NCBI GenBank assembly: GCA_000091205.1
Contig: AP006488.2
DNA from: Cyanidioschyzon merolae
Lineage: Eukaryota
DNA: 64,000 nt
Direction: 5' to 3' (one strand)
The notes under the pieces are model-generated. The model made no database searches, was not told where the DNA came from, and saw nothing but the letters and a program-made list of their open reading frames with translations. Shown here piece after piece: positions 1,532 to 54,250 of this stretch (position 1 is its first letter; the number at the start of each line of letters is the position of its first letter). Position numbers and translations under genes: made by a program.

Positions 1532-1535
1532 AGGA

Positions 1536-1660
1536 CTTGAGTGGAAGTACGCTTTAGGTCCGATCGTAAATTTCCTATTGCGCCTTGTTCTAATGTAAGT
1601 GACACAAAGGACTTGAGAAGAGGTACGGTTTAGGTCTGATCGGAGATATCCCGTGGCAGA
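1536..1660. repeat. Pair of roughly 37-bp direct repeats (aaggacttgag..gtacg.tttaggtc.gatcg) separated by about 45 bp, immediately 3' of the first ORF.
   Basis: Direct visual alignment of the two copies. Confidence 0.6.
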
Positions 1661-4600: not shown

Positions 4601-5286
4601 GAAACTTTTAGAGACTATGTGCATAAAACCGAGTCGAGTGCACGAGATCATGGTCTATGGACAGCGTACCATACGTCAGATGGCAAGGCAATGGAAAGCG
4701 AGAAGCGCGCTATCGTATGATTCCATCACCGGCAAGAATACGCGCAAGCACACACTGCACCGAGTCCCGGAAAAAACGTCGATCAACATCCGGACACTTT
4801 GCCTAGTTCAGGAGCATCCAGCGCTTACGTGTCGAGAAATGCGTCTCGAAAGAATCGTTCAGAAGTTTGTATAGGCATTTTACTGAAACGCTGGTGACTT
4901 GCGGTGGTATTCAAATCAGTTGCCCCGACAAAGCGGACTGGATTCCAACCCAGAACTGGGAGCTGAAACGGCACCGTTCAACTGCCCAGTGAGAGAATGA
5001 GAGCAGAGCGCCGCATACTCACATCGAGAACGATTCTCGCAGGCAACCGATAGACGATCATGGGGTTCCACCATTCGATATTCCTGCGTATGTCACGGAC
5101 TCGTCATTCCGAGGCTGGTTCGTGCCCCAGCTCTGCCGTTCGGTACCTGGATACCTGGGTCAGGCAGCACGACCCAAACATTGCTGGGTACCGACCACGA
5201 AACGTTGCTTTACGCCAGGAGAGTCGCAGTCGCGATGTTCCTCGCGAAAACGCCCCGCCATACACACACAAACTGCGGATCGTGGC

Positions 5287-7614: not shown

Positions 7615-9796
7615 GACCTCCAGAACGTCTCAAACTACGCACTGTTTACCAGGTAGGGTCAAACGCCCCCACGATCAGGCCCGAAAGACTCTGCCTAAGC
7701 GCTCGTGTTCGGCTCTGCGCTCTCCCGAACGTCGAGCGAATGACCTGTTGCGTAACTGCTGCCGCGGCGGCGGCAGCAGAGGCGAATGATGAGACCCAGC
7801 GCTTACCGAGTGCGCACTATAGGAAAAGGAACAGAAACGAACCTCTAACTAGCAAAGAGATCACATTTTCTTTCCTTCTCTATGATAAACATTAAAAGGG
7901 GGAACATGTTTTCGATATTTTAGAACGTTTACGTTATCGGCGGTAGGTTCCGCGAGCCGGACAAGACTGTCTGGGCTAGTGTATCACGCTCGTCCCGGTG
8001 GCGGGTGCTGTAGTGCGGTCTGAGCTGCAACTCGTCCAAACTGCAGTTTATTCTGGGACTTGATAGATTAGATCTCTTCCGGGTGTCGCCCTCGTTGCGG
8101 TGGACTCCACGTATATCGCTTTGCGCTGTCGCGTGCAGTGGGTTTGTCTGCGGAGCTTGCTGGCTCCGAGAATGATCATATACTCCGACTCTGTGTCAGG
8201 TGAAGCATTCCTCGATCCGACGCCCTCAGTAGTATGGCAACGCCGTTCTGTCTCTGTTATGCATCGGCATCAGCGGATTAGAGGGTAAGGCGGGTGCATC
8301 AACGCATGCACCCGACGAATGACAGGAAGCACGAGACGAGTAGTACATCCGAAAGGAAGTATACGTAATGGAATCTGGAGTTAGAATGCAGCATGATGGA
8401 TGCTTTCGCTGAATCCGATACCCATGCATAGCGCAACCTCGGATCCATTGTCAATGTGAGTGTTTTTCCATCGGAAAAATGAAGCACGTAGCTCTATCGT
8501 ACAAATTGTAACGATGTTCAAGTCGTAGAAAAGTACATTGTTTGTCCTCAATTGTGTTTCAACCTTCACACTAATGTATTCAAGTGCTTTTTCGCGCGTA
8601 ATAGCTGTCCCATCCAAAGCGGTTTCGGTTTTTATATTGAAAAAGGAAAGTTACGGAAGGGGAATTGGAGGATCCTGGGCGCCAGTGTCGCCGGCAGCCC
8701 GAAAAAACGAAGAACAGTGCCAAGTCCAAAGGAACAAGAGAAGAAGAAGAAGAAGAAGAAGTAAAAGCGGGAGGCCCTACGTCAAAGGCTACACAAAAGA
8801 CGACGGTACGACGAGATGGCGGTGAAAGCCTGTCTTCTTCAACATACCAAGGATCCGTACAGGGAAAACGTTCGAGAGGCAATCTGGAACCGTGTCGAGC
8901 CGAACTCAAGCGGTGTCCGTGACGCTTCCCAAGGAATGGCGCATTTCCTAAGGGAATGGTATCACGACGTTACGGACACCAAAACAGTCGAGGTTCTGGA
9001 AGAAATTTTCAACAAAACCTTTATTCATCACCGGATGCTTGGCACCGGGGAAACGTCTAGGTGAAATGAGCGAGTTCATGCCCTCCACAAAATTTACGCC
9101 GAATTCCGCTTCGACGGTACTCGATACAGGGGGGGATTCGAATATTTACACCTACGGGGCGATGAAGTACCTCACCAGTCTAAAGAACCATTTAACAATG
9201 AACCCCAAAAACTTCGATCGCCAGCATGAAAAGGAGATCGAATTCATCGACGAGACGACATCACTCAGGGGCATGAACGAGGATTCCGTCATCCGTACGG
9301 TTATACAAGAGCATCGTGCTGTCTTGGGACTGGCGAATCCAGCAGAAAAGATATCAGAGTGGAAAGAAGATAAGGAACGATACTATCGCCTCATCCTACG
9401 GTATTTCGTGTTTTTTGGCCGAGAACTCGAACGCAAGGCAGAGATGAAGCTGAGTGGGGAAAAAATGAAGAATGGGAGAGACGAAAGGCTGCGCTTCTGG
9501 GTAAGAGCTTAAACATCGTTCCGTTGTGAAACATCAAGTCACATTTTAAGACTATCGACTGCAGAGTCCTTCATGACATCATGAAGGAGATCTGTCCGGA
9601 GTTCGATGAACGGAAGACAGAGTTCACCGCTGAAAACCGGGAGACGTACTTGAAGAGTATCCTCAATTTCAAACGTCTCAAAGTAAGCAAGAAAAAGAAA
9701 TTCACTGGGATGATCGAAACCGATGGAGTATCTATATGTGTACACGATCGGCGGTTGAAGGTGGATCGTCCAGTCCTGCCTTCAGCCTCGCCCGTG

Positions 9797-10106
9797 ACGA
9801 AGCATGAAGGTGAGAAGGAGGCGGATCCTGCGATGCAGGAGTTGGAGGATAACGACCTTGGCGTTGACGTGGCGAAGCATGAAGAAAAGGAGAAGGCTGT
9901 TCCTGTGACTCAGGAGATAGAGCATAACGACCTTGTCGTTGACGTGACGAAGGATGAAGAAAAGAAAGAGGCGGATCCTGTGATGCAGGAGATGGAGGGG
10001 AACGACCTTGTCGTAGGCGCGGCGAATCATGAAGATGAGAAGGAAGCGAATCCTACCACGCAGAAAGCGCATGAGAACGACTTTGTAGTTGGCGCGGACC
10101 CCGGAA
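9797..10106 (+). repeat. Coding minisatellite inside Fanzor-like copy A. About 60 bp (20-aa) unit '[24 protein letters not shown]', roughly 4 tandem copies directly N-terminal to RuvC-I. The unit is a degenerate duplication of the RuvC-I strand.
   Basis: Protein-level tandem repeats 'NDLGVDVAKHEE / NDLVVDVTKDEE / NDLVVGAANHED / NDFVVGADPGSTN'. Copy B has 1 unit and copy D has 3. Confidence 0.7.
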
Positions 10107-10929
10107 GCACAAATATCATAACCATCGCTGCTCCCAAGCTCGCGGAAGATGGTATTGACGGGAACTTGCGTCAGAAATATATGCGTCTTCTGCGGCTCTC
10201 GAGAGCGAGATACTATCGACAATCGGGAATCATGAATGCGAGGAAGAAAATCGTTACGTGGAATGTAGGAATGAAAGAGCACCTGGAAGCTCTGAGTGAG
10301 GTGACGAGCCGAGGAGCGGACTTTCGAGCTTTTCGGTGATTCATGGAAGTTCGCGTTGCGCATTGGGATGCGCTATGGGAGGAGTATACCAAGCCCCGGT
10401 GGGCTCGTCTGCGTATGAATCGATACGGTGGGAAGCAGCGGGCGTTCGCGAATTTTTCAATCAGCCGAGCGCCTTGAAGGAGGATCAAAGTCAGAGGCTC
10501 GTAGTAGCGTATGGGGCACGGAGCTGGAAGACCAAAAAAGGGTGTACGCCAGCTCCAACGACAAGGGTGTACAAGGAGTGCGCACGGCGTTTCGTTACAA
10601 TACCTGTAGATGAGTTTCGAACATTGTATACACACCATGAACTGGGTTGTACACTTCAGCGAGTGGAGATGGAAAAGTGCCACAGGAGCCCTGAGGAAAT
10701 AGCAAAATACGGACCGTTGACGGAGGAGCAAATGGAAAGGAGGGTGAACGTTCGTGGATTACTTGCACTAGTAAGTACAACCAGTGATGGCAAGAAACGT
10801 ATGGAGTTTGTGAATCGTGACTTTAATGCCGCAATCAATGTACGGAGATGTGCGGTGCTGGAGAATAGACTTCCAGAGTCGACAAGAGTGAACTTTGTTG
10901 GACAACCTCTCAAAGTCGAATTATATGAG

Positions 10930-11075
10930 AAAAAGTTGGAAGCAGTCGTAGGTGGCCGGTCGAGAAACGGCGGGAAGGCGTCTGCACATCAGCTGGACAC
11001 GTTATGTCTAGGGCGCGGTTTTCCCGCCACTACGGTACACTGTCGGCGACGTCGTTCGACTTTCGAACGGCGTTT
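10930..11075 (+). ncRNA. Candidate omegaRNA/fRNA-like 3' scaffold of copy A. It is conserved with copy D through a terminal hairpin (cgttcg-acttt-cgaacg, extendable to about 10 bp) and diverges immediately after.
   Basis: A:D nucleotide identity across the C-terminal coding and 3' region ends at about 11075, and a palindrome sits at the boundary. By analogy to TnpB/Fanzor, whose guide RNA derives from the element's 3' end. No expression data. Confidence 0.3.
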
Positions 11076-11086
11076 GGAGGCGCGGC

Positions 11087-11167: not shown

Positions 11168-13474
11168 ATGGATTGGCACGCGGCTCCAGTTTACTATACT
11201 GATCAGGGTGTTGGAGTACCAGGTGCTGAAGAGCAAAGTGGAAATGTTTCTATCCAAGAACGGCGAATCATTGAGTTCTTGCTGCAGTTTCGCTCAGCTC
11301 CAAACGTGTTCCCTTATCGCGATCAGCTTGTGCGCCAGCTGCACGCTCGCAAGCACTGGATTCAGATCAAGATAGAGGACGTGTACGCCTTTGATGAAGA
11401 ACTGGCTGGGTATATTCGCCAAGCGCCTAACGAATGGATAGAGCGCTTGGAGCAAGCAGTCGATCGGGTGGTACGTCGGCTGCGGCTGCCGCTGGACCAC
11501 GAGATAGGCGGTGTTTCGGTGCAGGTGTTGCTGCAGTCCCAGGAGAACGCATTTCCGTTGAGGGAACTCCAGTCCGATCAGCTGGGGCGCCTTGTGCGTG
11601 TACAAGGCATTGTTATTTCCGCTTCAAAAGTACGCGCGAAAGCGCAGGTCGTCTGGTTACGTTGCCAGCACTGTGACTACCGAAAGATGATACGTGCTTC
11701 AGTGGGATTCGGTGGTTTCCAGGTGCCCCGCCAATGCGATCGTGTGACGGAAATGCGTTGCCCTCTGGACTCGTATGAGGTGATGCCGCATGAAAGCGTG
11801 TTTGTTGATCACCAGACAGTGAAGCTGCAGGAGCTGCCCGAGTCGGTACCCACTGGGGAGGTCCCTCGATCGCTCCTGCTCGTTCTCGAGCGGAATCTGA
11901 TTGATAGAGTAGCTCCTGGTGAGCGCGTCAGCGCTGTCGGTGTTTACTCGACATACGCCAGCACTCGTGATCGGAGCAGTCGTTCTGTGGCAGCTAACAT
12001 TGCCACAAGGGCTAGCGGACCAGACCTTGTAGCAGCGGTGAGAACTCCGTATATCCGAGTCCTCGGCATTGATGCTACGCAGGAAAGACGTGACCGTCAT
12101 CCAGGCTTTACCCCGGAGGAAGAGGAAGCCATGCGCAGCTTGAGTCGACTGCCAAACGTGTACGAAGTCTTGGCGGCGAGCATTGCCCCAGAAATCTGGG
12201 GTCTCTCCGATCCAAAACGTGCGGTATTGTGCCAACTATTCGGTGGCTCTCGTAAGACGCTTCCAGACGGAATGAGAATTCGAGGCGATATCAATGTGCT
12301 TCTTCTGGGCGATCCGTCTACCGCAAAATCACAGCTGCTCAAGTTTGCGGAGAAGGTCGCACCGGTCTCCGTGTATACGAGCGGCAAAGGCTCTTCCGCC
12401 GCAGGGCTGACCGCCTCTGTTATTCGAGACGCCACGCATGGTGAATTCCATCTCGAAGGCGGTGCGATGGTGCTAGCTGACGGTGGTATCGTCTGCATTG
12501 ACGAGTTTGACAAGATGCGCCTCGCAGACCGTGTCGCCATCCACGAGGCCATGGAGCAGCAGACCATTTCCATCGCCAAGGCCGGGATCACCACCGTGCT
12601 GAACTCGCGCACGGCAGTTTTGGCGGCAGCGAATCCTCTTTTTGGTTCGTTTGACGATACGCGCACTGTAGCGGATCAGATGGAGTTTGCATCCACGATT
12701 CTTTCTCGTTTCGACCTCATATTTCTGGTCCGCGACGTGCGCAATGATGAACGTGATCGAACGATTGCCCGACATGTACTAGCGCTGCATCAACGGGGCC
12801 ACAGTCTGCGCCCGCAGGGCTCTGGACTCGATTCGGCTGGTGATATCAGCGATTCAGGAATGCTGTCTTTGTCACCGAACGGTGCTAGCGAGTTCACCTC
12901 CAGCCAGATGCTGAACGCCGTTGGTCTTGTCCCGATCGACAAGTTGCGTCGCTATGTCGCCTACGCCAGACGCCGTTGCCGACCACGCCTCTCCGCAGAG
13001 GCTGCTGACCTACTACGAACAGCGTACGTGGCAGTACGCCAGGAGCTGCGCGATCGTACGGCAGATGGACCGACTCCTGTACCGATTGCGGTACGCCAGC
13101 TGGAATCCCTCATCCGCTTGACCGAGGCGTTGGCCAAGATGCGCCTGAGCGATCTTGCATCAGCTGCTGATGCCGAAGAGGCACTGCGGCTTTTCCGAGT
13201 CGCCACCATGGCCGCAGCGCACGCAGGTGCGCTACCTCCTGGTGCCTTTGAGGGTACCCTGAGCGGGGAATTTCTCATTGAGGTTCAAGCAGCCGAAGCA
13301 GCAATTCGGCGGCGCATCGCCATTGGTTCCATGCTCGCTTTGAACCGGCTGGTACGTGAACTCACCCAGCAGCATCTGTCTGCAGCGGCGACCCAGCGGG
13401 CGATCCAGATCATGCTCGGGCGACAGGAGCTCGAATGGCGTCGACAACGGACAGTACTGTGCCGTTTACGGTGA
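11168..13474 (+). CDS. MCM5: DNA replication licensing factor MCM5
   Basis: 768 aa with a true ATG. Walker A 'GDINVLLLGDPSTAKSQLLKF'. 'IDEFDKM' and the arginine-finger region. 'AIHEAMEQQTISIAKAGITTVLNSRTAVLAAANP' nearly identical to MCM5. N-terminus 'PVYYTD...IIEFLLQFR' aligns to the MCM5 N-terminus. Confidence 0.9.
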   Translation: MDWHAAPVYYTDQGVGVPGAEEQSGNVSIQERRIIEFLLQFRSAPNVFPYRDQLVRQLHARKHWIQIKIEDVYAFDEELAGYIRQAPNEWIERLEQAVDRVVRRLRLPLDHEIGGVSVQVLLQSQENAFPLRELQSDQLGRLVRVQGIVISASKVRAKAQVVWLRCQHCDYRKMIRASVGFGGFQVPRQCDRVTEMRCPLDSYEVMPHESVFVDHQTVKLQELPESVPTGEVPRSLLLVLERNLIDRVAPGERVSAVGVYSTYASTRDRSSRSVAANIATRASGPDLVAAVRTPYIRVLGIDATQERRDRHPGFTPEEEEAMRSLSRLPNVYEVLAASIAPEIWGLSDPKRAVLCQLFGGSRKTLPDGMRIRGDINVLLLGDPSTAKSQLLKFAEKVAPVSVYTSGKGSSAAGLTASVIRDATHGEFHLEGGAMVLADGGIVCIDEFDKMRLADRVAIHEAMEQQTISIAKAGITTVLNSRTAVLAAANPLFGSFDDTRTVADQMEFASTILSRFDLIFLVRDVRNDERDRTIARHVLALHQRGHSLRPQGSGLDSAGDISDSGMLSLSPNGASEFTSSQMLNAVGLVPIDKLRRYVAYARRRCRPRLSAEAADLLRTAYVAVRQELRDRTADGPTPVPIAVRQLESLIRLTEALAKMRLSDLASAADAEEALRLFRVATMAAAHAGALPPGAFEGTLSGEFLIEVQAAEAAIRRRIAIGSMLALNRLVRELTQQHLSAAATQRAIQIMLGRQELEWRRQRTVLCRLR

Positions 13475-30555: not shown

Positions 30556-30632
30556 GAGGATGCAAACGGTAGGGGGAAGTGCTGGAACTTTTCCCTCAGT
30601 AGGGATGTTTATGACTTTTTGAATCGAAGTAT

Positions 30633-30985
30633 GGGAATGCTATGTGCAGTGCAAAGATCCGGGCTCATAGATTCGTAGATCGTTGAATGCTATGTGCAGT
30701 GCAAAGATCCGGGCTCATAGATTCGTAGATCGTTGAATGCTATGTGCAGTGCAAAGATCCGGGCTCATAGATTCGTAGATCGTTGAATGCTATGTGCAGT
30801 GCAAAGATCCGGGCTCATAGATTCGTAGATGGTTGAATGCTATGTGCAGTGCAAAGATCCGGGCTCATAGATTCGTAGATGGTTGAATGCTATGTGCAGT
30901 GCAAAGATCCGGGCTCATAGATTCTTAGATGGTTGAATGCTATGTGCAGTGCAAAGATCCGGGCTCATAGATTCTTAGATGGTTC
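30633..30985. repeat. 50-bp tandem repeat, 7 copies (tgaatgctatgtgcagtgcaaagatccgggctcatagattcgtagatcgt), with terminal variants. It lies 80-430 bp upstream of the GatB ATG.
   Basis: Direct reading shows near-identical units. The last three carry 'ggt' or 'ctta' variants. Confidence 0.9.
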
Positions 30986-33567
30986 AAGGATTTACGATTG
31001 TGTCTGCGGACAAGCGCTTTCGACGCGTTGCTGCTGGCAGCGTTGACCTGGTCGGCATCAACATGCTTGGCGACACCCTCGAACAAGCGCTGGTAAAACT
31101 TCCGAACGCATGATCCAAGTGAATGCGTACATGGCTTTGCGGCGCTCTGTTCCTTCGATATACGGTCCTGGAATCAGGTATTCTTCCAGTTTTCGATTAT
31201 TCCGTTTCACGAGGACTCGTGAGGTACAGGTATTCGCGACGCGGGATGGACGAGGAAACATATTCAGCATGGTCTTTTGAGCGCTATTTCACGAGCTTGT
31301 TCAGAAATCTTCTCGACATTCCCTTTTTGCATCAGCGATCCAGTTTGGGAGAATTTCGTGCGTCTCTCTGTGGTGATCGATGAAACCGCATTTCACATGA
31401 GCAGCTGGATATCTCTAAAAGGATACGAGCCCAGAGATTTCCGTGGCTTTTGATTGTGCGGAAACGGGTCCTGGGTACGGGCTTGAATCATCCCAGCGAT
31501 CATATTAAGTGACGCGTCCGATACGATTTGCATAAAGGACGCGGATACGGATGAACGAATTCCGACTTGCTTTCCAGTTCGACAGTTCTTTTCGAAAATT
31601 CTTCCATGATAGGTAGCATCTCGTTTTAAAATGCTGTATTGAAGCGAATAGCATGCGGCTTCGCGTGCCTTGCAGAGAGCACTTTTCGAAAGGCTAGCCC
31701 CGAACAAGCTGGTGTTCGAGGGGTACAGCCCCAGGCGCTGCTCCTGGAGATTTCATCAAGGCGCGTCTTCTGTGGCCGTCATGGGCATCAGCCAAACGAT
31801 GCAGCAAGCGTCCACGCGTCGTAGAGCATCCAATGGAGGTTAAGGATAGGTGAACACATCGGTATACCTGCATTCAGTCACGGGTTATCAATACGAGGCG
31901 TGCGCCGAACTTGTATACGTAGACGACGACATTGCCTGGGAAAACGCAGATCGCAACGAATGTCCTTTTCCCGTGATATGCATCGGCAATAGTTGAGAAT
32001 TCCTAAAATCGACACGTGAATCTTTGCACCAACAGCTTCCGACTGCTCGTTACAGACCGAGATGAGAACTGGAGACCGCTGTATCTAAATTATGAGGTAC
32101 GAGAGAAAAATGAAAAAGCTGAAGACAAAGAACGACATGGATGATTTTGATCACTGCAGGAAGATGCTCAAACATCACTGTATCCGTATGAGCCAAGATG
32201 CGCTGTTCCCATTTCATTCTGAAGTCGGTTTAGCATTGCGGAGAGCGCATGAGACACGCTCTATATGTGGATGATCGCTCGATCAAGAGCAGGGTCTTTT
32301 ATGAAAAACTTGCACCATCTTTGTGGAATACCTTTGCACGCGAATTGTGCAGAGCATTTTGTTTTGCGTTCATCGGTATGATTCCGCTCTTCCTCGATGG
32401 AACACCATTTCAGAATATTCAGATCCTGAGCGCATGTCCGGAGATTTTATTATATTCTTCTGCAGACCAGAAGCTGTTGTACTTCAAAGGCTTTCGGAGA
32501 GATTCCGAACCCTTCAAACGAGCACGGGACGGCGCCGACTGCCGTTCGTCTGCGAATACCCATGCAAAACGCAACCCGAGAAACGCGCCAACAACCTGCA
32601 CGCGACGGAACCGCAGTTCGACGCCGCAGCGAACTGCACCATCTCAAGGCAGTGCAGGCGAGCCCTGCTCTGAGCAAATCAAACCTGGAATCCCGAGCCG
32701 AAGCCCGCATTGGTATAGCAAAGCCGCTCTGTCTCCGGTTTGCATCCGCAGCGGCGCTATTGGTGCTACCGCAGACGCTCACGGCGGGCTCGTCGCACGA
32801 TAGCGTGTAAAACATAACCACTGCATCCGAGCCAAGTACATGGAGTCTAAATTGAATATAGGTGGAACAGTGGATGCTTTTCTAATCGCTGATATTCAGG
32901 GCCCAATCGGGGATGCCTGGTCCATGTAAACTGTCCGTCAAGCGAGGAATCCCACCGACAAGCCGCATAATAAGAGGCGACAATCGAGCTGCACTGCCAC
33001 TGAACGTACGAAAGTGCGCTAAAAACTCCAGTGCGCATGTCGTAGCCTTCAAAGCCGCTTGATGCGTCGATTCTGCGGGAATCCGCCGGGTCACCGCGCG
33101 CTTTCAGGACTCGGGACACGTATGACCCGTACCAGTCGATGGGTTGCTCATCAGCGCTCATCCACATCGGCCTAGAATAGACAAGTGTACCTTGACTACG
33201 CTCAGCACAACACGGCTTGCCTGAAAAAGTCAGAAGCGGCACTGGTCCTGGTACGTGCTCGCTGTGTGCTCTTGAGCGACCACCAGTCATGCAACTGCGC
33301 AAAGTATGCGTACGGAGCGCAGCGAATCCATTCAGCTTGTGCTGTAAACTAGATGCGTCCAGAGCTTCGCGCCACACGAAGCCTTTTCCGGGCCAAAACC
33401 AGCAACGATGCCATCTCGTGTTGCATGCGATAAACTGGGGCGTGCTGCTTCACAGCGCGTACAAATCGAGTTCGTGTATACGCCGGTCTACCTGCAAGCG
33501 AACAGCAGCTGACCAAGCACGCCCTACCCTGTGCCGTACGGGATTCGCATTATTCGCAGGCATTCGG

Positions 33568-38627: not shown

Positions 38628-38851
38628 CACGAACACTTCTCGAAGTACAAGTGCTCAAAGCGCTTTCGAACCCAGACCCCCAAAAAGGACGATACCACAA
38701 ACGTGGTCGCTATTCGCAAACCGCCCAGAAACGTCACAGGCAACGAGCGTTCAGGTCTTTCTGGCAGGTTTCCGTACCGCGCAGGGACAACCGTCGTAAC
38801 ACCTTGCGCAGCGCGCCGCATATCGAGGCGATTGCACCTGCGCGCGCGAAA

Positions 38852-39200
38852 ACGTATACACGGATACGTATACACGGATACGTATACACGGATACGTATA
38901 CACGGATACGTATACACGGATACGTATACACGGATACGTATACACGCATACGTATACACGGATAAGTATACACGGATACGTATACACGGATACGTATACA
39001 CGGATAAGTATACACGGATACGTATACACGGATACGTATACACGGATAAGTATACACGGATAAGTATACACGGATAAGTATACACGGATACGTATACACG
39101 GATACGTATACACGGATACGTATACACGGATAAGTATACACGGATACGTATACACGGATAAGTATACACGCATACGTACACACGGATATGCATATATACA
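38852..39200. repeat. 14-bp minisatellite (ACGGATACGTATAC with AAG/GCA variants), about 25 copies, 200 bp upstream of the Rab1 ATG.
   Basis: Direct reading. It generates the multi-frame artifact ORFs 38627-39269. Confidence 0.9.
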
Positions 39201-42200
39201 CATCAAATGCCCACAGATCGAGAAGCGGCACAGGGGCGCTGTTGGAAACCGAAGAGAGCGCCTACCCATGGGCTATAGAGCGTGGCGTGCGCGATGACAT
39301 GCTGCCGGCCTGCGACGGCATGCTGGTTGAGTTTCATTGACAAGGTGGAATGTAGGAAAGCAACATTATATCCGAGAGGACGTATGGGTCATGGAACTTG
39401 ACGGTGGCGTCATGAATGATATGCGCTTTCTCGAATGTCGATGTTGATCGTGCAATTTAGGATTCTTCGTGTGTGCACACGTTCAGTTCAGTAAACGACA
39501 ACATAGATCGTTGGTGCAAACTCATCTGTAGAAGCAGCGATGGCGACGATCTTCTTCATGATGCGCGTACGGCGTATGCGATTCGACGTCAGTGCATCCG
39601 CGTGAATATCAAATGGAACGGGGCGCGATCACAGGGGCTCGCAGACGAGTCTTTGGGCACGGTATGCTTCCAGCGTCAATCATAAAGGACTTTGGGGTTT
39701 GCTTTTCCGCTTTCATGTATCCGGTTTTCGATAGGCTGGCCTTTGTTATTCCACCGGTGCTGCGCTCAGTAGTTGTGGGATGATGATAGCAATATTCAAG
39801 TCAAGATTTGGTAGTTTTCTGTTGTTTCATGCGCATGCGAAGCACAAGCAAAAGTTGCAACCTAGGCATCGCTTGCCCGATAAAGCTCGTTTACATAAAG
39901 CCTCGGAGCGCACATCGCAGGCGCGGCACATGGCTGTGTTCAAGCGTTCCAGTACGTCCACTGAACCTGCTCGTCCTCTGAGTACCGCCCTGTGGCGCTT
40001 GTAGGCCTGCTTCATCGCTCAGGGCATGGCCTTGGCGTGTACACGGAAACGATATTAAACGCTCTCGCCCGTTGGTGCCCCCGAAGCGTGCTGTATCCTT
40101 CGTTGGCGATCATCTTTTCGGTTATCTCCGCGGCAAGTACGCTGTCCGCTGCACGCGCAAGCGCATGTTGCTCCAACCGAACAGTTACCATGGGCTCTGT
40201 GATCGAGCTTCATTTTGCTGCATACGCTGCTGGTAAAAAGTGGCGACGGGCGCAAGCGGTGTCGTGTCCGCATCTTGCACCCGCCAGCAACCATGCGGCT
40301 ACGGCTTCTGAGGCGCCCCTCAGTTCTGTCCGCCATCTGTTAGAACCAGTCTCCCGTTTGTTCTCCTCTGCTGCGACGAAGATGAAACACTCGTGAGTAG
40401 AGCATATGACTATTGGTAAAGGTCGCAGGGTTCCGAACTCGTTGCTCCAGAGCGTCAACGGTTACCACACGAGAACTGAACTGCTGTTCGGATCGCACCG
40501 AAACGTGTCGCGAGCGGTTCGCTCGCCACAGGTCCAGCACGATGCATATCGCTCTGTGGCACTCGTTCGGCAGGTGACGCGACATTTTTGATCATCCTTC
40601 GTCTGTAGATCTCCTATTCCGAGCCTATTTGCCAATGAGATTAAAGTTGGTCACAAAGTTCATAAGACGTTCGCCTTCGATGTCGATGGATACCGCTAAG
40701 CGATCGAACGCGATGCACGGCATGACGGCTCGTTGCCATGATGCAAGCCTGTCGTTGCTGCCTTGCTTGTTCGAATGAGCTTCTTTCTTTGCCGTCTGGC
40801 GGTTTCTCTTCCTACCCTTCATAGATAATCGCTCGTTCGTGAGATCCTCCTGCTTCTGAGCCCTACATGGGCGCCCGTTATGACGCCTGTGCACCGGTCG
40901 CGTCAACGTTCTGCGCGCGCCCTCTGTGGCTTCCAAGTCCGCAACAGGTCGCTGGATCTATCAGGGTCCAAATACCTGCTGGCGGAAGACCCCGAATTGA
41001 GGCTCCTGAGCTTTGTAAAAAAGTGTGCAATGGAGACGACCTCTCTCTCCAAGTGAGCAGCAGCCTCGGCGTATATAGAAGATTCTGGTTTGCATCACGG
41101 ATCCGGCACCATTCATAATGCTTTCTGACGGCACTTGAATGGGTATCGCACGGGATTGCACTCAGAAGGACGTGCACTATGGAATGCTCTGAGTCCTGCT
41201 ATTGTCTGTATGCCTCTGTATTGTTTCGCGCTGAACAATACTTGTGATGCACGACTTTTTTGGCAGAACTGAATCGATCTGAATTGCTTTCTTATCGACC
41301 ATTTCATCAATGAACGGCAATGAGTCACACCATATGCACCCCGCAGTGCTGCCTGCCTTGATGCATGCCATTCGGACAAAGGGTCGGACAAGGACGCCTC
41401 CCCGGGGAAGCAGTATCAACTCGTCCGAGCACCTCTGCGAGACGCTCGGATGCGCGATGCGGACACACGGTCTGCATTGCTGACGGACGACGAAGCCCCA
41501 GCGGTATTGACGGGAGTTATGCAGTCCATCGTATCTCAATTGTTGCTTTGGTACAGTGGCGCTCTAACAAGGACCGAGTTCGTTCATCGTAATCGACCTC
41601 ACAACAGGGTCACCAGTGCGGTCCAGTCGATGCCGCACTCTCTGGACACGAATCGATCTGCAGGATGGGGTGTTGGCGCTCGTACGGCTTCTTCTCGGGC
41701 ACTGCTTTGAGGAGCAATGCCTGCCGTGCGTACCGTCTTGCCGAGTCCGTCTGCTGGCAACCTGGAGCTTGTGATTGCCGCATCGCCAGATGCGTCACCC
41801 GGTGTACGCCTGTCCAACGGATATTTTTACGGAAGCAGCCTAAAGCACCGGGATCGCCGACACCGACGCCCCCTTCCCTCTTGTATCCCCCCGCTTGGCG
41901 TCCCGGGCCCGCTGGACGCGCTCAACGCCAACAAAAGCCGACCCGTGCTCCCTGCTGCAGTGTACTCCGGGCGACGAGTCCGTGAACCGCAACCAAGTCT
42001 CGGTTTAAAAGCACTGCATCACCAACGGCTCCTGCCTCGCCGTGTGTTCCATGAACGCCTCGCGAGACGCTGAGAGGTATCGCAACTCGTTTCGTGCATG
42101 CGCAGAATCTTTCCTCCGCGTTCAAGCGCTTCAGTCTACGAGCTCGCCAGCGCAGCACAAACCGCCAGAGATGCTCGGTACCGTCCACTCAATCCCCAGG

Positions 42201-45594: not shown

Positions 45595-48250
45595 AGTCGC
45601 GCCGGTGTTGAATGACCACCGCACGTCTTTCAAAGGAGAAACGTTGCCGCCGTCGGTATACAGTAGAAGCGAGGAACACGCTCTAGACAAAAAGTCTCCA
45701 ACTGATGTGCAGACGCCTCCCAGTCTTTCTGGACCGGGCACCCACTACAGCTTTCAACCTTGTCTCATATGGTTCTACATTGAGAGGTTGTCCAACAAAA
45801 TTCCCTCTTGTTGACTCTGAAGGTCTCGTCTCCATCACCGCGCATCTCCTTATATTGATAGCGGCGTTAAAGTCTCTGTTCACAAACTCCATACGTTTCT
45901 TGTCATTGATTGTACTTACTGATGCAAGTAGCCCTCGCACTTTCGCCCTCCTTTGCATTTGCTCTTCCGTCCGCGGTGCGTGCTTTTTTATATCTTCAGG
46001 GCTCCGCTGGCACTTTTCCATATCGACCCTTTGAAGTGTACACCCCCGTTCATGGTGTGTATACGATGTTCGGAACTTACCGACAGGTATTGTAACATAC
46101 CGGTGTGCGCACTCCTCGTACGCTCTTGTCGTTGGAGCCGGTCTACACACATTTTTGGGTCTTCCATCGCCCTGCTCCGCAGGCTACTACGAGCCCTCGA
46201 GCCTTGTCCTCTTTGAGGGCACTCAACTGATTGAAAAAGTTCACGAATACACGCTGCTTACCACAATACAGATTCATTCGCAGACGAGCCCGCCGGGGCT
46301 TGGTATACTCCTCCCACAACGGATCCGAATGGGCAACACGAACTTCCATGGATTTCCGAAAAACTCCACAGTCCGCGCCTCGGCGCGTCACCTCGCTCAA
46401 AGCTTCCAGGTGATCCTTCATTCCTGCATTCCACGTACCTATTTTCTTCCTCGCATTCATTATACTGGATTCTCGATAGTATCTCGTTCTCGGGAACCTC
46501 AAAAGACGCATGTCTTTCTGACGTAAACTACCATCAGTACCATTTTCCGAACGCTTCGGTGCTGCGATTCTTATGATATACGTATTCCGAGGGTCCGCGC
46601 CAACGCCAAAGTCGTTATCCTGCACTTTCTGTGTCGCACGATCCGCCTCCTTCACATCTTCATGGTTCGCCGAGGACGGACCAGGACGATCTCTCTTCAA
46701 CCGCGGATAGAGTACACACATGGCTACTCCATCGGTTTCGATGATCCCAGTGAACAACTTTTGCTTGCTCACTTTGAGAAGTTTGAAATCGAAGTTGTTC
46801 TTCCAGTGCGTCTCCTGGGTATCACCGGTGAACTCTGTCTTCCTTACGATGAACTCTGGACTGATCTCCCTCATGATGCCGTAAAGGACGCCGGAGTCGA
46901 TAGTCACAAAATGTGACTTGATGTTGCATATTGGAACCCCGTTGAAGCGCTTCCCCATTAGAAAAGCCTTCCGTCTCTCCCACTCTTCATTTTTTTCCTC
47001 ACTCAGCTTCACCTCTGCCTTGCGTTCGAGCCCTCGGTCCAGAGACACGAAATACAGCAGAATGAGGCGATAGTATCTTTCCTTATCTTTTTTTCAACTC
47101 TGATATCTTGTCGGTTTGGTTCGCCAACCCCAAGACTGCATGGTGCTCTTCTATAAGCACACGGATTACAGAAGCTATATTCGTTCCCCTGTGTGACGCC
47201 TTCTTGTCGACAAATTCGATCTCATCTTCATGTTGCGATCGTTCATGATGCCGTTGATAATCGCCCATATTTCTTTGCGAGAGATGTTCGGGTACAGTGC
47301 AAACACGGCGCGTACCATAAAACGTTCGAGATTCAAAGTCAAATGGCTCTTCAGGTTCGTGATGTACTTTATCGCCCCGTATGTGTACATATGCGAGTCA
47401 CCCTTGTATCGATTACACTCAAAGCTGCAAAAGGGATGTTTTTCGTGGAGAGCATGCACCCGATCATTTTTCCTTCACGTCCCCGCTGTACCAAGCATCA
47501 TGTGACGAATAAACGTCTTGTCGAAGAACTCGCCCGGAATCTCGACGGTTGCCATGTGCGTCACGTTTTCGTACATCTCCCTCGCCCAATGCATCAGTCC
47601 TGACGAAGCCTTGACAATACTCTTGGAGTACGAGTCGACGCAGTTTTCGATAGCGTCTCGCAGCTTTTCCCTGTAGGGATCCTTGATTTGTCCAAGAAGA
47701 GAGGTTTTCACCACTATCTCGTGGTACAGTTGTCGTTCTTGCAGCCTTCGACATAGGGCCTTCCCCTTTGCTTCTTTTTCTCTTCCTTTTCTTCTGGACT
47801 CGGCACTGTATTTGTTTCTCCGGCAGCCGGCGACAATGGCGCTCCAGGATCGTGGACTTGCTTTTTCATAGCTTTCCTTTTTTGGGGTTTTTCGAAAAAG
47901 AACGCTCTTTGAACCCTTCTGTTATATACTGCGAAAAAGCACTTGACTAGACATGTTTGAGGGCTGAAACACAAATGAACTGAAAAATTGTACTTTGCTT
48001 CGACTCCAACGCAAATACAACTTTTTCCGGTAGAACAACACGTCAACGAATGGTCAGGACTACGTTTCTCTTCCACTGTGAAAAGCGCGTTGTATTTCAT
48101 GCCTTTCAAATATGGAGGTGCACAACTCGACAGAATTATTTAGAACAAAGAACAGATACTCACGATACACGACAAACGATGTAACGATTTCATTCCCCCT
48201 CTACGCTAAACGTTGACAGGGGAAGAAGCTTTCCGCATGTTAGAATGTTT
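45595..48250 (-). mobile_element. Fanzor/TnpB-like element copy B (degenerate, at least 4 frame breaks). Its 3' end lies about 190 bp upstream of the PepN start.
   Basis: Homologous to A and D over the leader, coding region and 3' tail. Its 3'-tail hairpin is degraded. Confidence 0.55.
45683..47869 (-). pseudogene. Fanzor/TnpB-like nuclease pseudogene (copy B). Pieces: 47714-48109, 47475-47714, 47175-47459, 47083-47268, 46143-47048, 45683-46150.
   Basis: RuvC-I '[18 protein letters not shown]'. RuvC-III 'RMEFVNRDFNAAINIRRCAV'. Copy-specific frame breaks. Confidence 0.6.
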
Positions 48251-48419
48251 GCGCTCCAGGCGGAAGGCCCCGTGAGCCGGACGAGTCTTCTTGGTAATTG
48301 CGTCATGGCCCCCCCAGTGGCAGGTGCTTTAGTGATATCTGACCAACTCATCCCCGAAGCGGTTTATTCCGGCATTAAGGGTGCTCAGGCAGCGTCTGCA
48401 CGTCGCCCTGGTCGCAGCG

Positions 48420-49235
48420 CATTCGATGGTACGCCAACGCTGTTCTGTCTCTGTACAGCATCCGCTCCAGCGGTACAAGCGCTGCGGCGGGTGCTCACTG
48501 CAGGCTCGGCGCACGAACGAACGCACAAATCGACCAGTCTAGCGGAAAGGGAGTCTAAGTAATGGAACCTGGAAGTAGGGTGCACCATGATGGGCGCTTT
48601 CCCGAAAGCCGATATCCATCCCGCAATCCGTGATCCACGGTCAACGGATAGGTTTTCTCAGGCCAGAAAAAGAACAAGACACGACGCTCGTGCCGCCGTT
48701 CAAGGGAAACGCCATCCTGATCAATAGCGTGTTGTTCAGCTGTGAAAGTCAGACTTCCGTTCAGGCCGTAGCCAAGCACAGTCTTTCAGTTCCTGTTTGT
48801 TTCGAACTTCAAACAAGTCTAGTCAAGTGTTTTGTCGCAGTATGTAACAGAAGCGTTCACAGAGCGTTCTTTCCAAAAAAACAAAAAAAGAATAGTTATG
48901 AAAAAGCAAGTCGACGATCCTGGAGGCCCAGGATCGCCGGCTGCCAGAAAAAAACAAAAAACATTGCCGAGTCCAGTAGAAAAGGAAGAGAAAAAAAGCA
49001 AAGGGGGAGGCCCTATGTCGATCGCGGCAACAAAGTCGACTGTACAACGGGATGGTGGTGAAAGCCTGTCTTCTTACACATCTCAAAGATCCGTACAAGG
49101 AAAAGTTGCGAGACGCTATCAGAAACCATGTCGACTCGTACTCCAAGAGTATTGTAAAGGCGTCTTCCGGACTGATGCATTGGGCGAGGGAGATGTACGA
49201 AGACGTGACGCACATGGAAACAGTCGAGACAATAT
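48420..49235 (+). mobile_element. Fanzor/TnpB-like element copy C: 5' fragment only (leader plus the first roughly 110 codons), head-to-head with copy B.
   Basis: ATG at about 48897 'MKKQVDDPGGPGSPAARKK...RGRPYV...MVVKACLLTHLKDPYKEKLRDAI...VTHMETVE'. Homology is lost after about 49235. Confidence 0.5.
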
Positions 49236-51294: not shown

Positions 51295-54250
51295 AGCGCC
51301 GCCTCACGCACCATCAACGCCGTTCGAAAGTCGAACGACGCCAACGGCGTACAGTAGTGGCGAACGCGCCCCAGACAAGAAGACGCCATTTGACGTACAG
51401 ACGCTCCACGTCTTTCTGGACCGGCCACGCACTACAGCTTCCAACTTTTTCTCATGTAGTTCGACTTTGAGAGGTTGTCCAACAAAATTCCCTCTTGTTG
51501 ACTCTGAAGGTCTCGTCTCCATCACCGCGCATCTCCTTATATTGATAGCGGCGTTAAAGTCTCTGTTCACAAACTCCATACGTTTCTTGTCATTGATTGT
51601 ACTTACTGATGCAAGTAGCCCTCGCACTTTCGCCCTCCTTTGCATTTGCTCTTCCGTCCGCGGTGCGTGCTTTTTTATATCTTCAGGGCTCCGCTGGCAC
51701 TTTTCCATATCGACCCTTTGAAGTGTACACCCCCGTTCATGGTGTGTATACGATGTTCGGAACTTACCGACAGGTATTGTAACATACCGGTGTGCGCACT
51801 CCTCGTACGCTCTTGTCGTTGGAGCCGGTGTACACACTTTTTGGGTCTTCCATCGCCCTGCTCCGCAGGCTACTACGAGCCCTCGAGCCTTGTCCTCTTT
51901 GAGGGCACTCAACTGATTGAAAAAGTTCACGAATACACGCTGCTTACCACAATACAGATTCATTCGCAGACGAGCCCGCCGGGGCTTGGTATACTCCTCC
52001 CACAACGGATCCGAATGGGCAACACGAACTTCCATGGATTTCCGAAAAACTCCACAGTCCGCGCCTCGGCTCGTCACCTCGCTCAAAGCTTCCAGGTGAT
52101 CCTTCATTCCTGCATTCCATGTACCTATTTTGTTCCTCGCATTCGTTATGCCAGATTCTCTACAGTATCTCGTTCTCGGGAACCTCAAAAGGCGCATGTC
52201 TTTCTGACGTAAACTACCATCAGTACCATTTTCCGAACGCTTCGGTGCTGCGATTCTTATGATATTTGTGTGTGTAGGGTCAGTGCCAACGACATGGTCG
52301 TTATCCTGCACTTTCTGTGTCGCAGGATCCTCCTCTTTGTATTCTTCATGCTCCGCCGCGTCAACGACAAGGTCGTTATCCTCCACTTCCTGCGTCGCAG
52401 GATCCGCCTCTTTCTCAACTTCATGCTTCGCCGTGCCAACGACAAGGTCGTTATCCTCCACATTCTTCGTCTCAGTATCCGCCCGATCCTTTTCTTCACC
52501 CTTCGAGAGGAACGAAGCCGAGGGCGGAACTGGACGATCATTCTTCAGCCGCCCGATAATGTACACACAAGGCTACTCCATCGGTTTCGATCATCCCATT
52601 GAATACCTTTTGTTTGCTGACTTTGAGCCGTTTGAAATCGAAGACACTCTTCCAGTACGTGTCCCGGTTTCTCGCCGGTGAAGTCCTCCCTGCTGACAAT
52701 GTACTCCGGACTGATCTCCTTCATAATGCCGTGAAGGATTCTGGGGACGATAGTCACGAAATATGCCTTGCTATTGCACATGGGAACCACGTCGAAACGC
52801 TTTCGCATTAGGACAGCCTTCCGTCTCTCCGACTCTTCATTTTTTCCCTCACTCAGCTTCACCTCTGCCTTGCGTTCGAGTTCACGGTCCAGAAACACGG
52901 AATACCGCAGAATGAGGCGATAGTATCTTTCCTTATCTTTTTTCAGCTCTGGTACCCTGTTTGTTGGATTCGCCAACCCCAGTACCGCACGGTGCTCTTG
53001 TATACCCGCACGGAATACAGAAGCTTCATTCGCGCTCTCGTTTGACTCCTTCTTGTCCACGAATTCGACCTCATCTTCATGCTTGCGATCGTTCGTGATG
53101 TCGTTGATAATCGCCAATTTTCCATTACAAGAGATGCCCGGGTACAGCGCAAAGACGGCACGTGTCATGAAACGTTCGAGGTTCATCGTCAAATGGTTCA
53201 TCAGTTCCGTGAGCTACTTCATCGCTCCGTATGCATAAATATCCTGGTCACCCCTGCTTCGAGTACCCTCGAACCTGTAAAAGGGATGTTCTTCGTGGAG
53301 GGCGTGAATCCGCTATTTTCACTCCGTGTTTCCCCTGTGCCAAGCATTAGGTTACGAATAAAGGTCTTGTCGAAAAACTCGTCCGGAACCGCGACTGTTT
53401 CCATGTGCGTCACGTTTTCGTTCATCTTCATCACCAAATGCATTAGCCCTGACGACGCCTTTCTAATACTCATGGAGTACGAATCGACACGATTTCTGAT
53501 GGCGTCTCGCAATTTTTCCTCGTACGTATCCGTGATATGTCCGAAAAGACAGGCTATCACCACCGTATCGTCGTACATTCGTCTTTCTTGCGGCCCCTGA
53601 CTTCGGGCCTCCTGCCGTTTCTTTCTTGTCCTCTCCTTTTCCTCTGGACTAGACACTGCTTTTTGCTTTTCTCTGGCAGCCGGCGACACTTGGCGAACAG
53701 GATCTCTGACTTGCATATCCATAGCTTCTCCTTGGATTATTCATTTTTTCAATATAAACGCACTCCGATGCTCCTGCTGAAAACTGCGAAAAAGCATTCG
53801 ATGACGCTCACCTGAAGTTGGAACTAAAGTGAGATGATAGTCCATGAGTAGAAAGAGCAGGTTTGCCAGCAGGAGGACGCGGATTATGAATCATTTCATT
53901 AATAGACCCCCAACGTGGGGGCAGATCTACACTCATTTCTGAAAAAACGAGGACCGACCCTCTAAATCGGGAGAAAAGACTAGGCTTTGGGTCGCTTCTC
54001 ACTTTCGTCAATACCAGTCTTGAGGGGCATGATGTTTGACTACTTCCCTTGTCTCTCTCATATGCGCCTGTAGCAACGCAGAATTCTCTTGTCCCTCTAG
54101 CTCCGTTTTCAGAAGTAGAAGGATGTTGATGGCAGTGTCAAAGCCACCATTTCACTGCTTCCGGCTGCTGCTCACGCACTTAATGCTCGAACGGGAGATG
54201 CGATCTATGCTTTGCTTGCCATTTGCGTCTTCCTCGCGTAAAGTCGCGGT
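51295..54250 (-). mobile_element. Fanzor/TnpB-like element copy D (best preserved; about 2 frame breaks). Its 3' end lies about 80 bp upstream of the LPAAT start.
   Basis: Longest intact segment: ORF 51304-52566 spans RuvC-I to RuvC-III. Leader homology to A and B extends to at least 54020. Confidence 0.6.
51304..53722 (-). pseudogene. Fanzor/TnpB-like nuclease, likely a pseudogene (copy D). Pieces: 53219-53722, 52545-53201, 51304-52566.
   Basis: RuvC-I '[17 protein letters not shown]'. Zn-finger-like 'YEECAHRYVTIPVGKFRTSYTHHERGC..MEKCQRS'. RuvC-III 'RMEFVNRDFNAAINIRRCAV'. The RuvC-II position reads 'GLVVACGAGRWK'. Confidence 0.6.

Follow-up and report, generated by a model that had tools for sequence, protein, structure and literature searches.

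The segment at positions 51,295 to 54,250 of a 64,000-nucleotide stretch of Cyanidioschyzon merolae DNA (the window, meaning here the whole stretch that was analyzed) raises the question of what kind of element it represents. A reading of the letters alone (the sequence-only reading) had described it as the last of four mutually homologous segments, A to D, and had assigned all four to the Fanzor/TnpB family of RuvC nucleases. Fanzor1 proteins are eukaryotic homologues of TnpB with a WED-REC-RuvC-TNB fold. We conclude, with a probability of roughly 95%, that A to D all belong to CMe-1A, the principal interspersed repeat of C. merolae, and are copies in a state of decay; the element carries one intron-less gene for a Fanzor1 protein of ~734-780 aa.

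The window contains four copies of CMe-1A and an older relic

Repeat search, pairwise blastn and a three-way alignment all showed that segments A, B, C and D are related as proposed, with 78-87% identity and E=0 over more than 1 kb, and B and D share 94-99% identity across their 3' ~1 kb. To set the limits of the copies, the window was mapped by blastn against the 3169-bp consensus published for CMe-1A, which aligned to all four segments at 78-87% identity over 0.55-2.8 kb. The proposed homology thus stood, and the ends of the segments were corrected by this mapping. Copy D is a pseudogene of the CMe-1A core on the minus strand at 51308-53832 (consensus 800-3169, 82-85% identity by blastn), which is 5'-truncated at consensus ~800 and complete on its 3' side up to the terminal palindrome. 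It therefore stops at 53832 and not at 54250, and nothing homologous to 53833-54250 was found in the other copies or in the CMe-1A consensus.

Copy A lies on the plus strand at 8488-11082, where the core starts at consensus ~740 and extends as far as the palindrome at the 3' terminus. This copy adjoins a 675-bp upstream module at 7799-8473 (minus strand) that resembles TE-N2_CMe (consensus 1-663; 78% identity over 677 nt by blastn) and that is oriented opposite to the arrangement in the published CMe-1A consensus. Copy B, on the minus strand at 45612-48417, is collinear with consensus 366-3169, and the 5' part of its TE-N2_CMe module (consensus 4-236) lies at 48427-48660, also on the minus strand and collinear with B after a 129-bp deletion. 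The consensus position-1 end of this module abuts fragment C, a plus-strand piece at 48674-49228 in which 555 bp from the 5' side of the core (consensus 683-1238) remain, so that C stands head-to-head with the 5' module of B. Two solo TE-N2_CMe-like fragments, both on the minus strand and both 72% identical to the consensus, were found at 32694-32931 (consensus 13-253, E=1.5e-27) and 39348-39463 (consensus 30-144, E=2.9e-11). Because of the limits obtained by consensus mapping, the single leader of about 450 bp that had been described for all segments does not hold: the 5' region is modular. TE-N2_CMe is collinear with the core in B and inverted beside A and C, and D lacks it.

The element is already known and has been published twice. 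It was reported as a 'novel interspersed repetitive element' of about 3.2 kb, transcribed, present in 253 copies on all chromosomes and making up about 5% of the genome, with a truncated ORF resembling WSV486 of WSSV (Nozaki et al., 2007, BMC Biol 5:28, PMC1955436). This is the same element, although its relationship to TnpB/Fanzor was not recognised in that paper. CMe-1A was later classified as Fanzor1, and its 3169-bp consensus and the CMe-1 protein were published (Bao and Jurka, 2013, Mob DNA 4:12, PMC3627910); in that consensus the 5' 635 bp correspond to TE-N2_CMe and are collinear with the rest. The window copies agree with the published element in their ~80% identity, their lack of terminal inverted repeats (TIRs) and their link to TE-N2_CMe, but differ from it in being pseudogenes and in the inversion of TE-N2_CMe in A and C. 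Furthermore, a 75-nt (25-aa) repeat is present in 1-4 units in the copies (4 in copy A), compared to one in the published consensus.

A further Fanzor1-like relic, strongly decayed, was found on the plus strand at 2876-4820. It was matched in several frames by our family profile A3, described below (best domain E=4.4e-8), and by P0079 in tblastn (summed E=1.2e-20, 24-34% identity), and it showed no DNA similarity to CMe-1A. This relic is a fifth Fanzor1-like copy in the window, of a different and much older lineage.

The encoded protein is related to Fanzor1 nucleases by profile and predicted fold

A majority consensus of A, B and D, proposed by the sequence-only reading as a way to check the family assignment, restored a single reading frame of 800 codons, the protein of which is 76% identical to published CMe-1 over its full length (734 aa). 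Scans of the window ORFs and of a 783-aa consensus against Pfam and NCBIfam gave no relevant match, PF07282 (OrfB_Zn_ribbon) being below threshold or absent, and a phmmer search of PDB with the consensus yielded no TnpB or Fanzor match and a spurious match to angiogenin only. A shallow profile of 10 sequences (A2) likewise retrieved nothing from PDB at E<=10, and the pre-computed annotation of several matches was limited to PF26935 (DUF8286). We then used the divergent homologue P0026, which recruited 100 further relatives, and built the 85-sequence family profile A3. This profile matched three solved Fanzor1 structures, PpFz (9cf0, E=3.3e-19), SpuFz1 (8gkh, E=5.5e-11) and GtFz (9cer, E=4e-4), with the DPG, vDEFRTs and nRDxNAAlN motifs lined up, and frames of the window matched A3 with E as low as 4e-140. 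Fanzor1 matches appeared only once the relatives recruited through P0026 were in the profile. Thus, the proposed profile check failed in its single-sequence form and succeeded with the 85-member profile, and the failed searches reflect a problem of sensitivity rather than a real negative. One likely reason why this clade was missed by every single-sequence search used is the loss of its zinc ribbon.

The predicted fold agrees with the profile. The AlphaFold model of P0001, a relative 71% identical to the window consensus, has a pLDDT of 83.3 and a pTM of 0.80, and its top Foldseek matches in PDB were SpuFz1, PpFz and GtFz (E=5e-17 to 1e-13, TM up to 0.72; for SpuFz1, E=5e-17 and TM about 0.7), in agreement with the WED-REC-RuvC-NUC/TNB fold of Fanzor1. 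Cas12 variants and Fanzor2 followed only as weak matches (E about 3e-3 to 1e-2), and the viral matches were Fanzor-like proteins of giant viruses and baculoviruses. The assignment to a Fanzor-type family is therefore supported by the A3 profile, the predicted fold and the 76% identity to CMe-1, and the protein is, as judged by profile and predicted fold, homologous to the solved Fanzor1 nucleases. CMe-1 shares with SpuFz1 (8GKH), PpFz (9CF0) and GtFz (9CER) this homology, the overall fold and the rearranged D/E/D residues, but is only 12-15% identical to them in sequence; its family also differs in having a disordered tandem-repeat linker before RuvC-I, and the element lacks 30-nt inverted repeats.

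The family keeps a rearranged catalytic triad and has lost the zinc finger

The longest ORF of copy D (420 aa; 51304-52566, minus strand, from the ORF list) spans the disordered 25-aa repeat linker, RuvC-I, RuvC-II, a TNB-like region and RuvC-III, and A3 matched it at 51466-52362 with E=8e-90. This ORF and all motifs quoted from it were found as written. The RuvC-I motif (52261-52293, minus strand) retains the catalytic Asp, in a column that is Asp in 81 of 85 family members and that aligns to D383 of SpuFz1. LVVACGAGRWK is present at 51847-51879 (minus strand), and the RuvC-III motif FVNRDFNAAINI at 51538-51573 (minus strand) is seen in the ORF translation, the family alignment and the A3 profile alignment. 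The segment IPVGKFRTSYTHHERGC (51727-51777, minus strand) contains the site of the relocated RuvC-II Glu, at which the DE of the family's VDEFRT is mutated to GK, and has residues other than Cys at the zinc-finger ligand positions.

Across the 85 sequences, the rearranged D/E/D triad is at least 95% conserved (D484 in 81, E656 in 82 and D725 in 81). The position of the canonical RuvC-II residue is Y/F-G, and the Glu has been relocated to VDEFRT (82/85). In the alignment to SpuFz1, D383 and E541 were counted, whereas D606 was placed by offset and not counted. Two explanations had been offered for the unusual RuvC-II site of D, a rearranged active site or an inactivated one, and both apply: the site is rearranged in the family, the Glu is mutated in B and D, and all copies are frameshifted.

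The partial loss of zinc ligands that had been noticed in D was read correctly and extends to the whole clade of 85 sequences. The CCCC zinc finger of NUC/TNB is absent from CMe-1, whose ligand columns read H, L, L and S. No more than one of these columns is commonly Cys in the clade, and in 76 of the 85 proteins the whole interval from the relocated Glu to the RuvC-III Asp contains two Cys at most. This finger has been called strictly conserved in Fanzor and TnpB (Bao and Jurka, 2013, PMC3627910), and its absence counts against the Fanzor1 assignment.

All four copies in the window are pseudogenes

Alignment of CMe-1 by tblastn revealed 1-3 frameshifts as well as stop codons in each of A to D. 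In copy A the D/E/D residues are retained, but the reading frame is shifted at least 3 times, contains 4 in-frame stops and lacks 78 nt through a deletion. Copy B has 2 frameshifts and 5 stops, and the tblastn match of copy D to CMe-1 is split over 3 frames and includes 1 in-frame stop; in both copies, the relocated catalytic Glu has been lost (VDEF to VGKF). All four window copies are non-functional pseudogenes.

This decay bears on whether the sequences could instead be host genes, either a family dispersed through the genome or a nuclease that was domesticated. Intact ORFs have been reported in some other copies despite about 20% divergence (Bao and Jurka, PMC3627910), the elements are reported to be transcribed (PMC1955436) and conservation of the triad throughout the wider family is strong, all of which would suit a host gene. 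However, frameshifts and stops are present in every window copy, and most of 80 metagenomic copies are likewise broken by frameshifts or stops, with only about 3 ORFs longer than 700 aa. Moreover, 150-253 copies are spread over all chromosomes, and copies have common, defined ends and differing flanks. We consider a host gene family very improbable, and a mobile element the reading to be kept.

The surroundings are those of C. merolae

The genes around the copies had been described as eukaryotic, and this was borne out by the ORF at 11168-13474, which is identical to MCM5 of C. merolae 10D. One neighbouring ORF is, by the look of its sequence, presumably an M1-type aminopeptidase. An exact look-up found none of the window ORFs in the protein collection, and they are therefore apparently unannotated.

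This genomic context refutes bacterial IS605 contamination. The RuvC motifs do resemble those of TnpB, and CMe-1 shares the RuvC core with its GxDxG and RDxNAAxNI motifs with TnpB of IS200/IS605 and IS607 and with Cas12. However, the copies are surrounded by genes that match C. merolae exactly, both the structure and the profile searches placed eukaryotic Fanzor1 proteins rather than TnpB first, and the protein, at about 750 aa with a large REC domain, is Fanzor1-like. Compared to bacterial TnpB, CMe-1 is about twice the size, has a eukaryotic host and a relocated RuvC-II Glu, and lacks both the zinc ribbon and an adjacent TnpA. Contamination, or recent horizontal transfer from bacteria, is accordingly left with a vanishingly small probability.

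An origin as remnants of integrated viral DNA, from a giant virus or a WSSV-like virus, would instead place the copies outside a cellular transposon family. The ORF was first recognised by its similarity to WSV486 of WSSV (PMC1955436), the closest viral folds are proteins of Tetraselmis virus, klosneuviruses, nudiviruses and granuloviruses, and Bao and Jurka, who counted the related WSSV protein as Fanzor1, proposed that Fanzor is spread by viruses (PMC3627910). Yet every copy is a unit of about 2.5-3.2 kb that holds just one gene and shares its ends with the others. Within the window the copies are flanked by MCM5, the aminopeptidase-like ORF and other ORFs and by no further viral gene, and their large number and roughly 80% identity are in keeping with amplification within the genome. 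Viral remnants are thus highly unlikely, and the copies are better regarded as members of a cellular transposon family.

A constant core apparently adjoins interchangeable 5' modules

The core of the element has a sharp 5' boundary marked by a GC-rich hairpin (GCGCTCAGTGAGCGC or variants of it), and its 3' side is closed by a long terminal palindrome followed by a GT-rich tail, which extends the conserved 3' end about 7-10 nt beyond the end of the published consensus. A post-stop hairpin is conserved in the 3' region, and the 5' end of TE-N2_CMe is always preceded by a T-rich motif. Both orientations of TE-N2_CMe recur in metagenomic copies, as do other 5' modules, and the published consensus looks like a composite of a constant Fanzor core and an interchangeable 5' module. 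A covariance model of the terminal hairpin (R1) matched 51308-51360 in D and 11027-11082 in A and found 46 copies. Covariation in this hairpin did not exceed that in shuffled alignments (113/500 shuffles for the percentage of cells paired, 103/500 for the covariation score), and we therefore do not claim a selected RNA structure. RNAalifold gave essentially no consensus structure for the last 290 nt of 42 copies (-2.8 kcal/mol), and a scan of the whole window at Rfam gathering thresholds gave 0 matches.

A tentative reading, to which we give a low probability, is that the mobile unit is not the 3.2-kb CMe-1A but the constant ~2.5-kb core (consensus ~648 to the end), bounded by the 5' GC hairpin and the 3' palindrome, repeatedly joined at its 5' end to one or the other end of TE-N2_CMe or to a different 5' module, and encoding a member of a Fanzor1 clade that lacks the zinc finger and keeps D/E/D. 

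CMe-1A carries no transposase gene and lacks TIRs. If it works as established for SpuFz1, GtFz1 and other Fanzor1 proteins, the 3' end of an intact copy, where the post-stop hairpin and terminal palindrome lie, would give rise to an omega-RNA to which the protein binds. The guide of this RNA would come from the DNA beside the element, and the resulting complex would cleave matching sites adjacent to a TAM. Such cleavage would favour persistence or spread of the element, either by homology-directed repair or with the aid of a trans-acting transposase.

As for spread alone, the core could instead have been moved as single-stranded DNA by a trans-acting HUH enzyme (Helitron2 or IS200/IS605-like), with the Fanzor gene as a passenger. 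The absence of TIRs and of detectable target site duplications (Bao and Jurka, 2013, PMC3627910), the hairpin and palindrome-tail boundaries of the core and the T-rich motif ahead of TE-N2_CMe would all suit such an enzyme, as would the precedent of Chlamydomonas CRe-1/2/3, where non-autonomous Helitron2 elements that have a hairpin at each end carry the Fanzor1 gene (PMC3627910). CMe-1A resembles these in being a high-copy, non-autonomous Fanzor1 element of an alga that lacks classical TIRs and has a hairpin close to either end, but no asymmetric terminal inverted repeat (ATIR) was recognised in it, and it is not known to resemble any Helitron. The covariation in the terminal hairpin is not significant, and variable 5' modules and 5' truncations would suit other mechanisms, such as recombination or retro-type copying, equally. 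C. merolae is not known to have a Rep/Hel partner. We regard HUH-driven movement as rather unlikely.

Implications

If the ~2.5-kb core is the mobile unit, it would point to hairpin-dependent (HUH-like) or Fanzor-guided site-specific spread, undescribed for Fanzor1 elements, and would imply a Fanzor that works without a zinc ribbon. C. merolae is a thermo-acidophilic and haploid alga with very efficient homologous recombination. For these reasons, a reconstructed CMe-1 could be a practical test of whether a Fanzor lacking the zinc finger has RNA-guided nuclease activity, and could also show how such elements spread.

The repeated segments are copies of the published Fanzor1 family CMe-1A

The feature is already known: it is CMe-1A, a published Fanzor1 family and the only one that Bao & Jurka (2013; PMC3627910) gave for C. 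merolae, with about 150 copies, each ~80% identical to a ~3 kb consensus. They described it as lacking TIRs, left its TSDs undetermined, and supplied the 3169-bp consensus and the 734-aa protein CMe-1 as supplementary files. By blastn, this consensus aligned to all four homologous window segments (A-D), and the window consensus protein was 76% identical to CMe-1 over its full length. Nozaki et al. (2007; PMC1955436) had already reported the element as a transcribed ~3.2 kb repeat that accounts for ~5% of the C. merolae genome and whose truncated ORF shows weak similarity to WSSV WSV486; Bao & Jurka counted one Fanzor1 in the WSSV genome (PMC3627910).

A window repeat search and pairwise blastn confirmed the mutual homology, over 0.55-2.8 kb, that the sequence-only reading had proposed for A (+), B (-), C (+) and D (-), with A 70-81% identical to B and D (blastn). 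The D ORF at 51304-52566 (-) and every peptide motif quoted from it were also found in the sequence. None of the four copies contained an intact gene. When the A/B/D alignment is reduced to its majority consensus, a single 800-codon frame emerges, which indicates that the copies descend from one intron-less gene of ~2.3 kb. The adjoining ORF 11168-13474 matched C. merolae 10D MCM5 residue for residue, and the surroundings are therefore eukaryotic, as claimed earlier.

The encoded protein has a predicted Fanzor1 fold and a Fanzor1-type catalytic site

Pfam and NCBIfam scans of single sequences gave no match, and single-sequence phmmer against the PDB returned nothing relevant. A database search with the 783-aa window consensus identified 26 relatives, all from JGI metagenomes, including P0001 (752 aa, 71% identical to the query) and the divergent P0026 (633 aa, 29% identical); a profile from these relatives alone still missed the PDB. 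A second search with P0026 added ~100 relatives, many of them Haematococcus lacustris proteins, and the profile of an 85-sequence alignment of the enlarged set (A3) matched three solved Fanzor1 nucleases, 9cf0 (Parasitella parasitica, E=3.3e-19), 8gkh (Spizellomyces punctatus, E=5.5e-11) and 9cer (Guillardia theta, E=4e-4), with the iDPG, vDEFRTs and nRDxNAAlN motifs aligned. The proposed relationship to Fanzor was detected with the family profile; the single-sequence negatives reflect limited sensitivity. Counted in the printed alignment, SpuFz1 residues D383 and E541 face the first two motifs and, by the same numbering offset, the third should lie opposite D606; the Mg ligands of the solved SpuFz1 structure are D383, E541 and D606, plus N385.

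An AlphaFold2 model of P0001 on A3 reached a mean pLDDT of 83.3 and a pTM of 0.80, the sole sizeable low-confidence stretch (pLDDT <50) being residues 380-469, a tandem 25-aa repeat. Foldseek of this model against the PDB ranked SpuFz1, PpFz and GtFz on top (E 4.6e-17 to 1e-13, target-normalised TM up to 0.72), with Cas12 variants and Fanzor2 far lower. The initial assignment to Fanzor therefore stands, the predicted fold being of WED-REC-RuvC type and closest to Fanzor1. The best Foldseek matches among viral models were proteins of giant viruses, nudiviruses and granuloviruses that carry transposase or Cas12f1-like TNB annotations. An exhaustive profile search returned 2388 cluster representatives at E<=1e-3, and the clade is therefore large. 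The repeat of the disordered P0001 linker corresponds to an acidic 75-nt (25-aa) unit present in 1 to ~6 units depending on the copy (9782-10100 in A, 52285-52505 in D, consensus 2117-2196).

The zinc finger is lost in the clade and the catalytic Glu in two window copies

Bao & Jurka (PMC3627910) include a C4 zinc finger in the motif that is strictly conserved in TnpB and Fanzor, and the SpuFz1 NUC domain carries a CCCC finger. In contrast, CMe-1 has H, L, L and S at the four ligand positions. No more than one of these positions is commonly Cys in the 85-sequence clade, and between the relocated RuvC-II Glu and RuvC-III 76 of the 85 proteins contain at most two Cys, whereas the D/E/D triad is at least 95% conserved. 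Loss of the zinc ligands probably explains why PF07282 found no match.

We used tblastn with CMe-1 to follow the reading frame through each copy. A runs through frames 2/3/2/2/1, with at least three frameshifts, four in-frame stops and, in the A/B/D alignment, a 78-nt deletion; B through -1/-3/-1, with two frameshifts and five stops; and D through -1/-3/-1/-2, with three frameshifts and one stop. C, a fragment only, has two frames, one frameshift and no in-frame stop. The catalytic motifs GADPG, VDEFRT and NRDFNAA are retained in A. Both Asp residues also survive in B and D, but VDEFRT is replaced by VGKFRT, so that the relocated Glu is gone. The RuvC-II site had been read as either rearranged, as described for Fanzor (Jiang et al. 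2023; PMC10530073), or inactivated, and each alternative applies in part: the relocated Glu is present in 82 of 85 family members and lost in B and D. These two copies, 5.7 kb apart, share the DE-to-GK mutation and a 3' ~1 kb that is 94-99% identical (45624-46670 versus 51318-52360; repeat search and blastn), yet identity drops to 78% in their 5' parts, which suggests gene conversion or partial duplication between them.

A fifth, heavily decayed Fanzor1-like relic lies at 2876-4820 (+). At the nucleotide level it does not resemble CMe-1A; its closest match is the metagenomic protein P0079 (24-34% amino acid identity, summed E=1e-20). The relic thus points to an additional, older lineage of Fanzor1 in C. 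merolae, in contrast to the single family of Bao & Jurka (PMC3627910).

A constant core is joined to different 5' modules

Copy boundaries were taken from blastn of the window against the 3169-bp consensus. D covers only consensus 800-3169 (53832-51318, -); it had been drawn to 54250, and 53833-54250 lacks homology to any copy or to the consensus. B (-) covers 366-3169 and, after a 129-bp deletion, continues collinearly with consensus 4-236 at 48660-48427. C (48674-49228, on the opposite strand to B; consensus 683-1238) begins 14 bp beyond the consensus position-4 edge of B's module, and the module (48427-48660, -) is thus flanked on both sides by cores whose 5' ends face it. A covers 740-3169 from 8488 (+), preceded by consensus 1-663 inverted at 8473-7799 (-).

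Over its 5' 635 bp, CMe-1A shares 95% identity with TE-N2_CMe, an element in its own right (Bao & Jurka 2013, PMC3627910). We compared 80 related metagenome loci, presumably from Cyanidioschyzon-like algae. The part shared by all copies, the core, has a sharp 5' boundary near consensus 646-650, marked by a GC-rich hairpin (ATCGCGCTCAGTGAGCGCACC and variants), and at least four upstream contexts recur: TE-N2_CMe forward, TE-N2_CMe inverted with a constant GAAAAAAAGA spacer before the core, a 446-bp module common to at least 10 loci, and a fourth module. CMe-1A as published therefore looks like one of several combinations of a 5' module with a constant core. TE-N2_CMe abuts the core in either orientation in A and B/C and in L004, L006, L033, L034, L037, L038, L053, L068 and L079. 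The 446-bp module, 75-82% identical among loci (L007, L010, L011, L030, L032, L056, L063, L064, L066, L071, L073, L075, L080, L081), takes its place upstream of the same core; the 5' modules are thus interchangeable, resembling Mucor MCi-2 (Bao & Jurka, PMC3627910).

A T-rich motif (TTTTTC/T) precedes TE-N2_CMe position 1 at 8474-8483 and 48661-48672, and recurs in the otherwise unrelated flanks of L006, L010, L022, L035, L041, L053, L055 and L061; either the published TE-N2_CMe consensus misses a few bases at its 5' end or T-rich targets are preferred. Two solo fragments with ~72% identity to the first ~250 bp of TE-N2_CMe lie at 32694-32931 (-) and 39348-39463 (-), the latter ~80 bp from a tandem array of a 14-nt unit repeated ~35 times (38777-39266). 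Another array, of a 50-nt unit repeated ~9 times, occupies 30585-31037.

The 3' end carries a terminal palindrome

In most copies the stop codon is followed by a short hairpin (TAGGGCG...CGCCACTA) and then a long palindrome with one of two stem variants, CGTCGTTCGA-CTT-TCGAACGGCG or CGTTTTTC-TTTT-GAAAGGCG; several copies stop just short of it. A GT-rich tail (TTTGKTG, ~7-10 nt) continues past the end of the published consensus and can lengthen the stem by pairing back. The palindrome lies at 11027-11082 (+), 45609-45669 (-) and 51308-51360 (-) in the window. A covariance model from nine copies found 46 instances, all at copy ends, and the inner helix was paired in 91.5% of cells. Covariation in the terminal hairpin was no better than in shuffles, and RNAalifold on the last 290 nt of the copies gave no consensus. 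By analogy, this 3' region is where a putative Fanzor omega-RNA would be expected.

Fanzor1 is borne by Helitron2 elements in Chlamydomonas; given this precedent, the two hairpinned ends and the lack of TIRs and TSDs, HUH-type mobilisation of the element is a reasonable but speculative idea. Beyond the family identity, homology, predicted fold, conserved catalytic residues and local-copy decay documented here, characterised Fanzor1 systems suggest that an intact protein would be guided by omega-RNA and require a TAM, and that its DNA cleavage may support retention or spread of the element.
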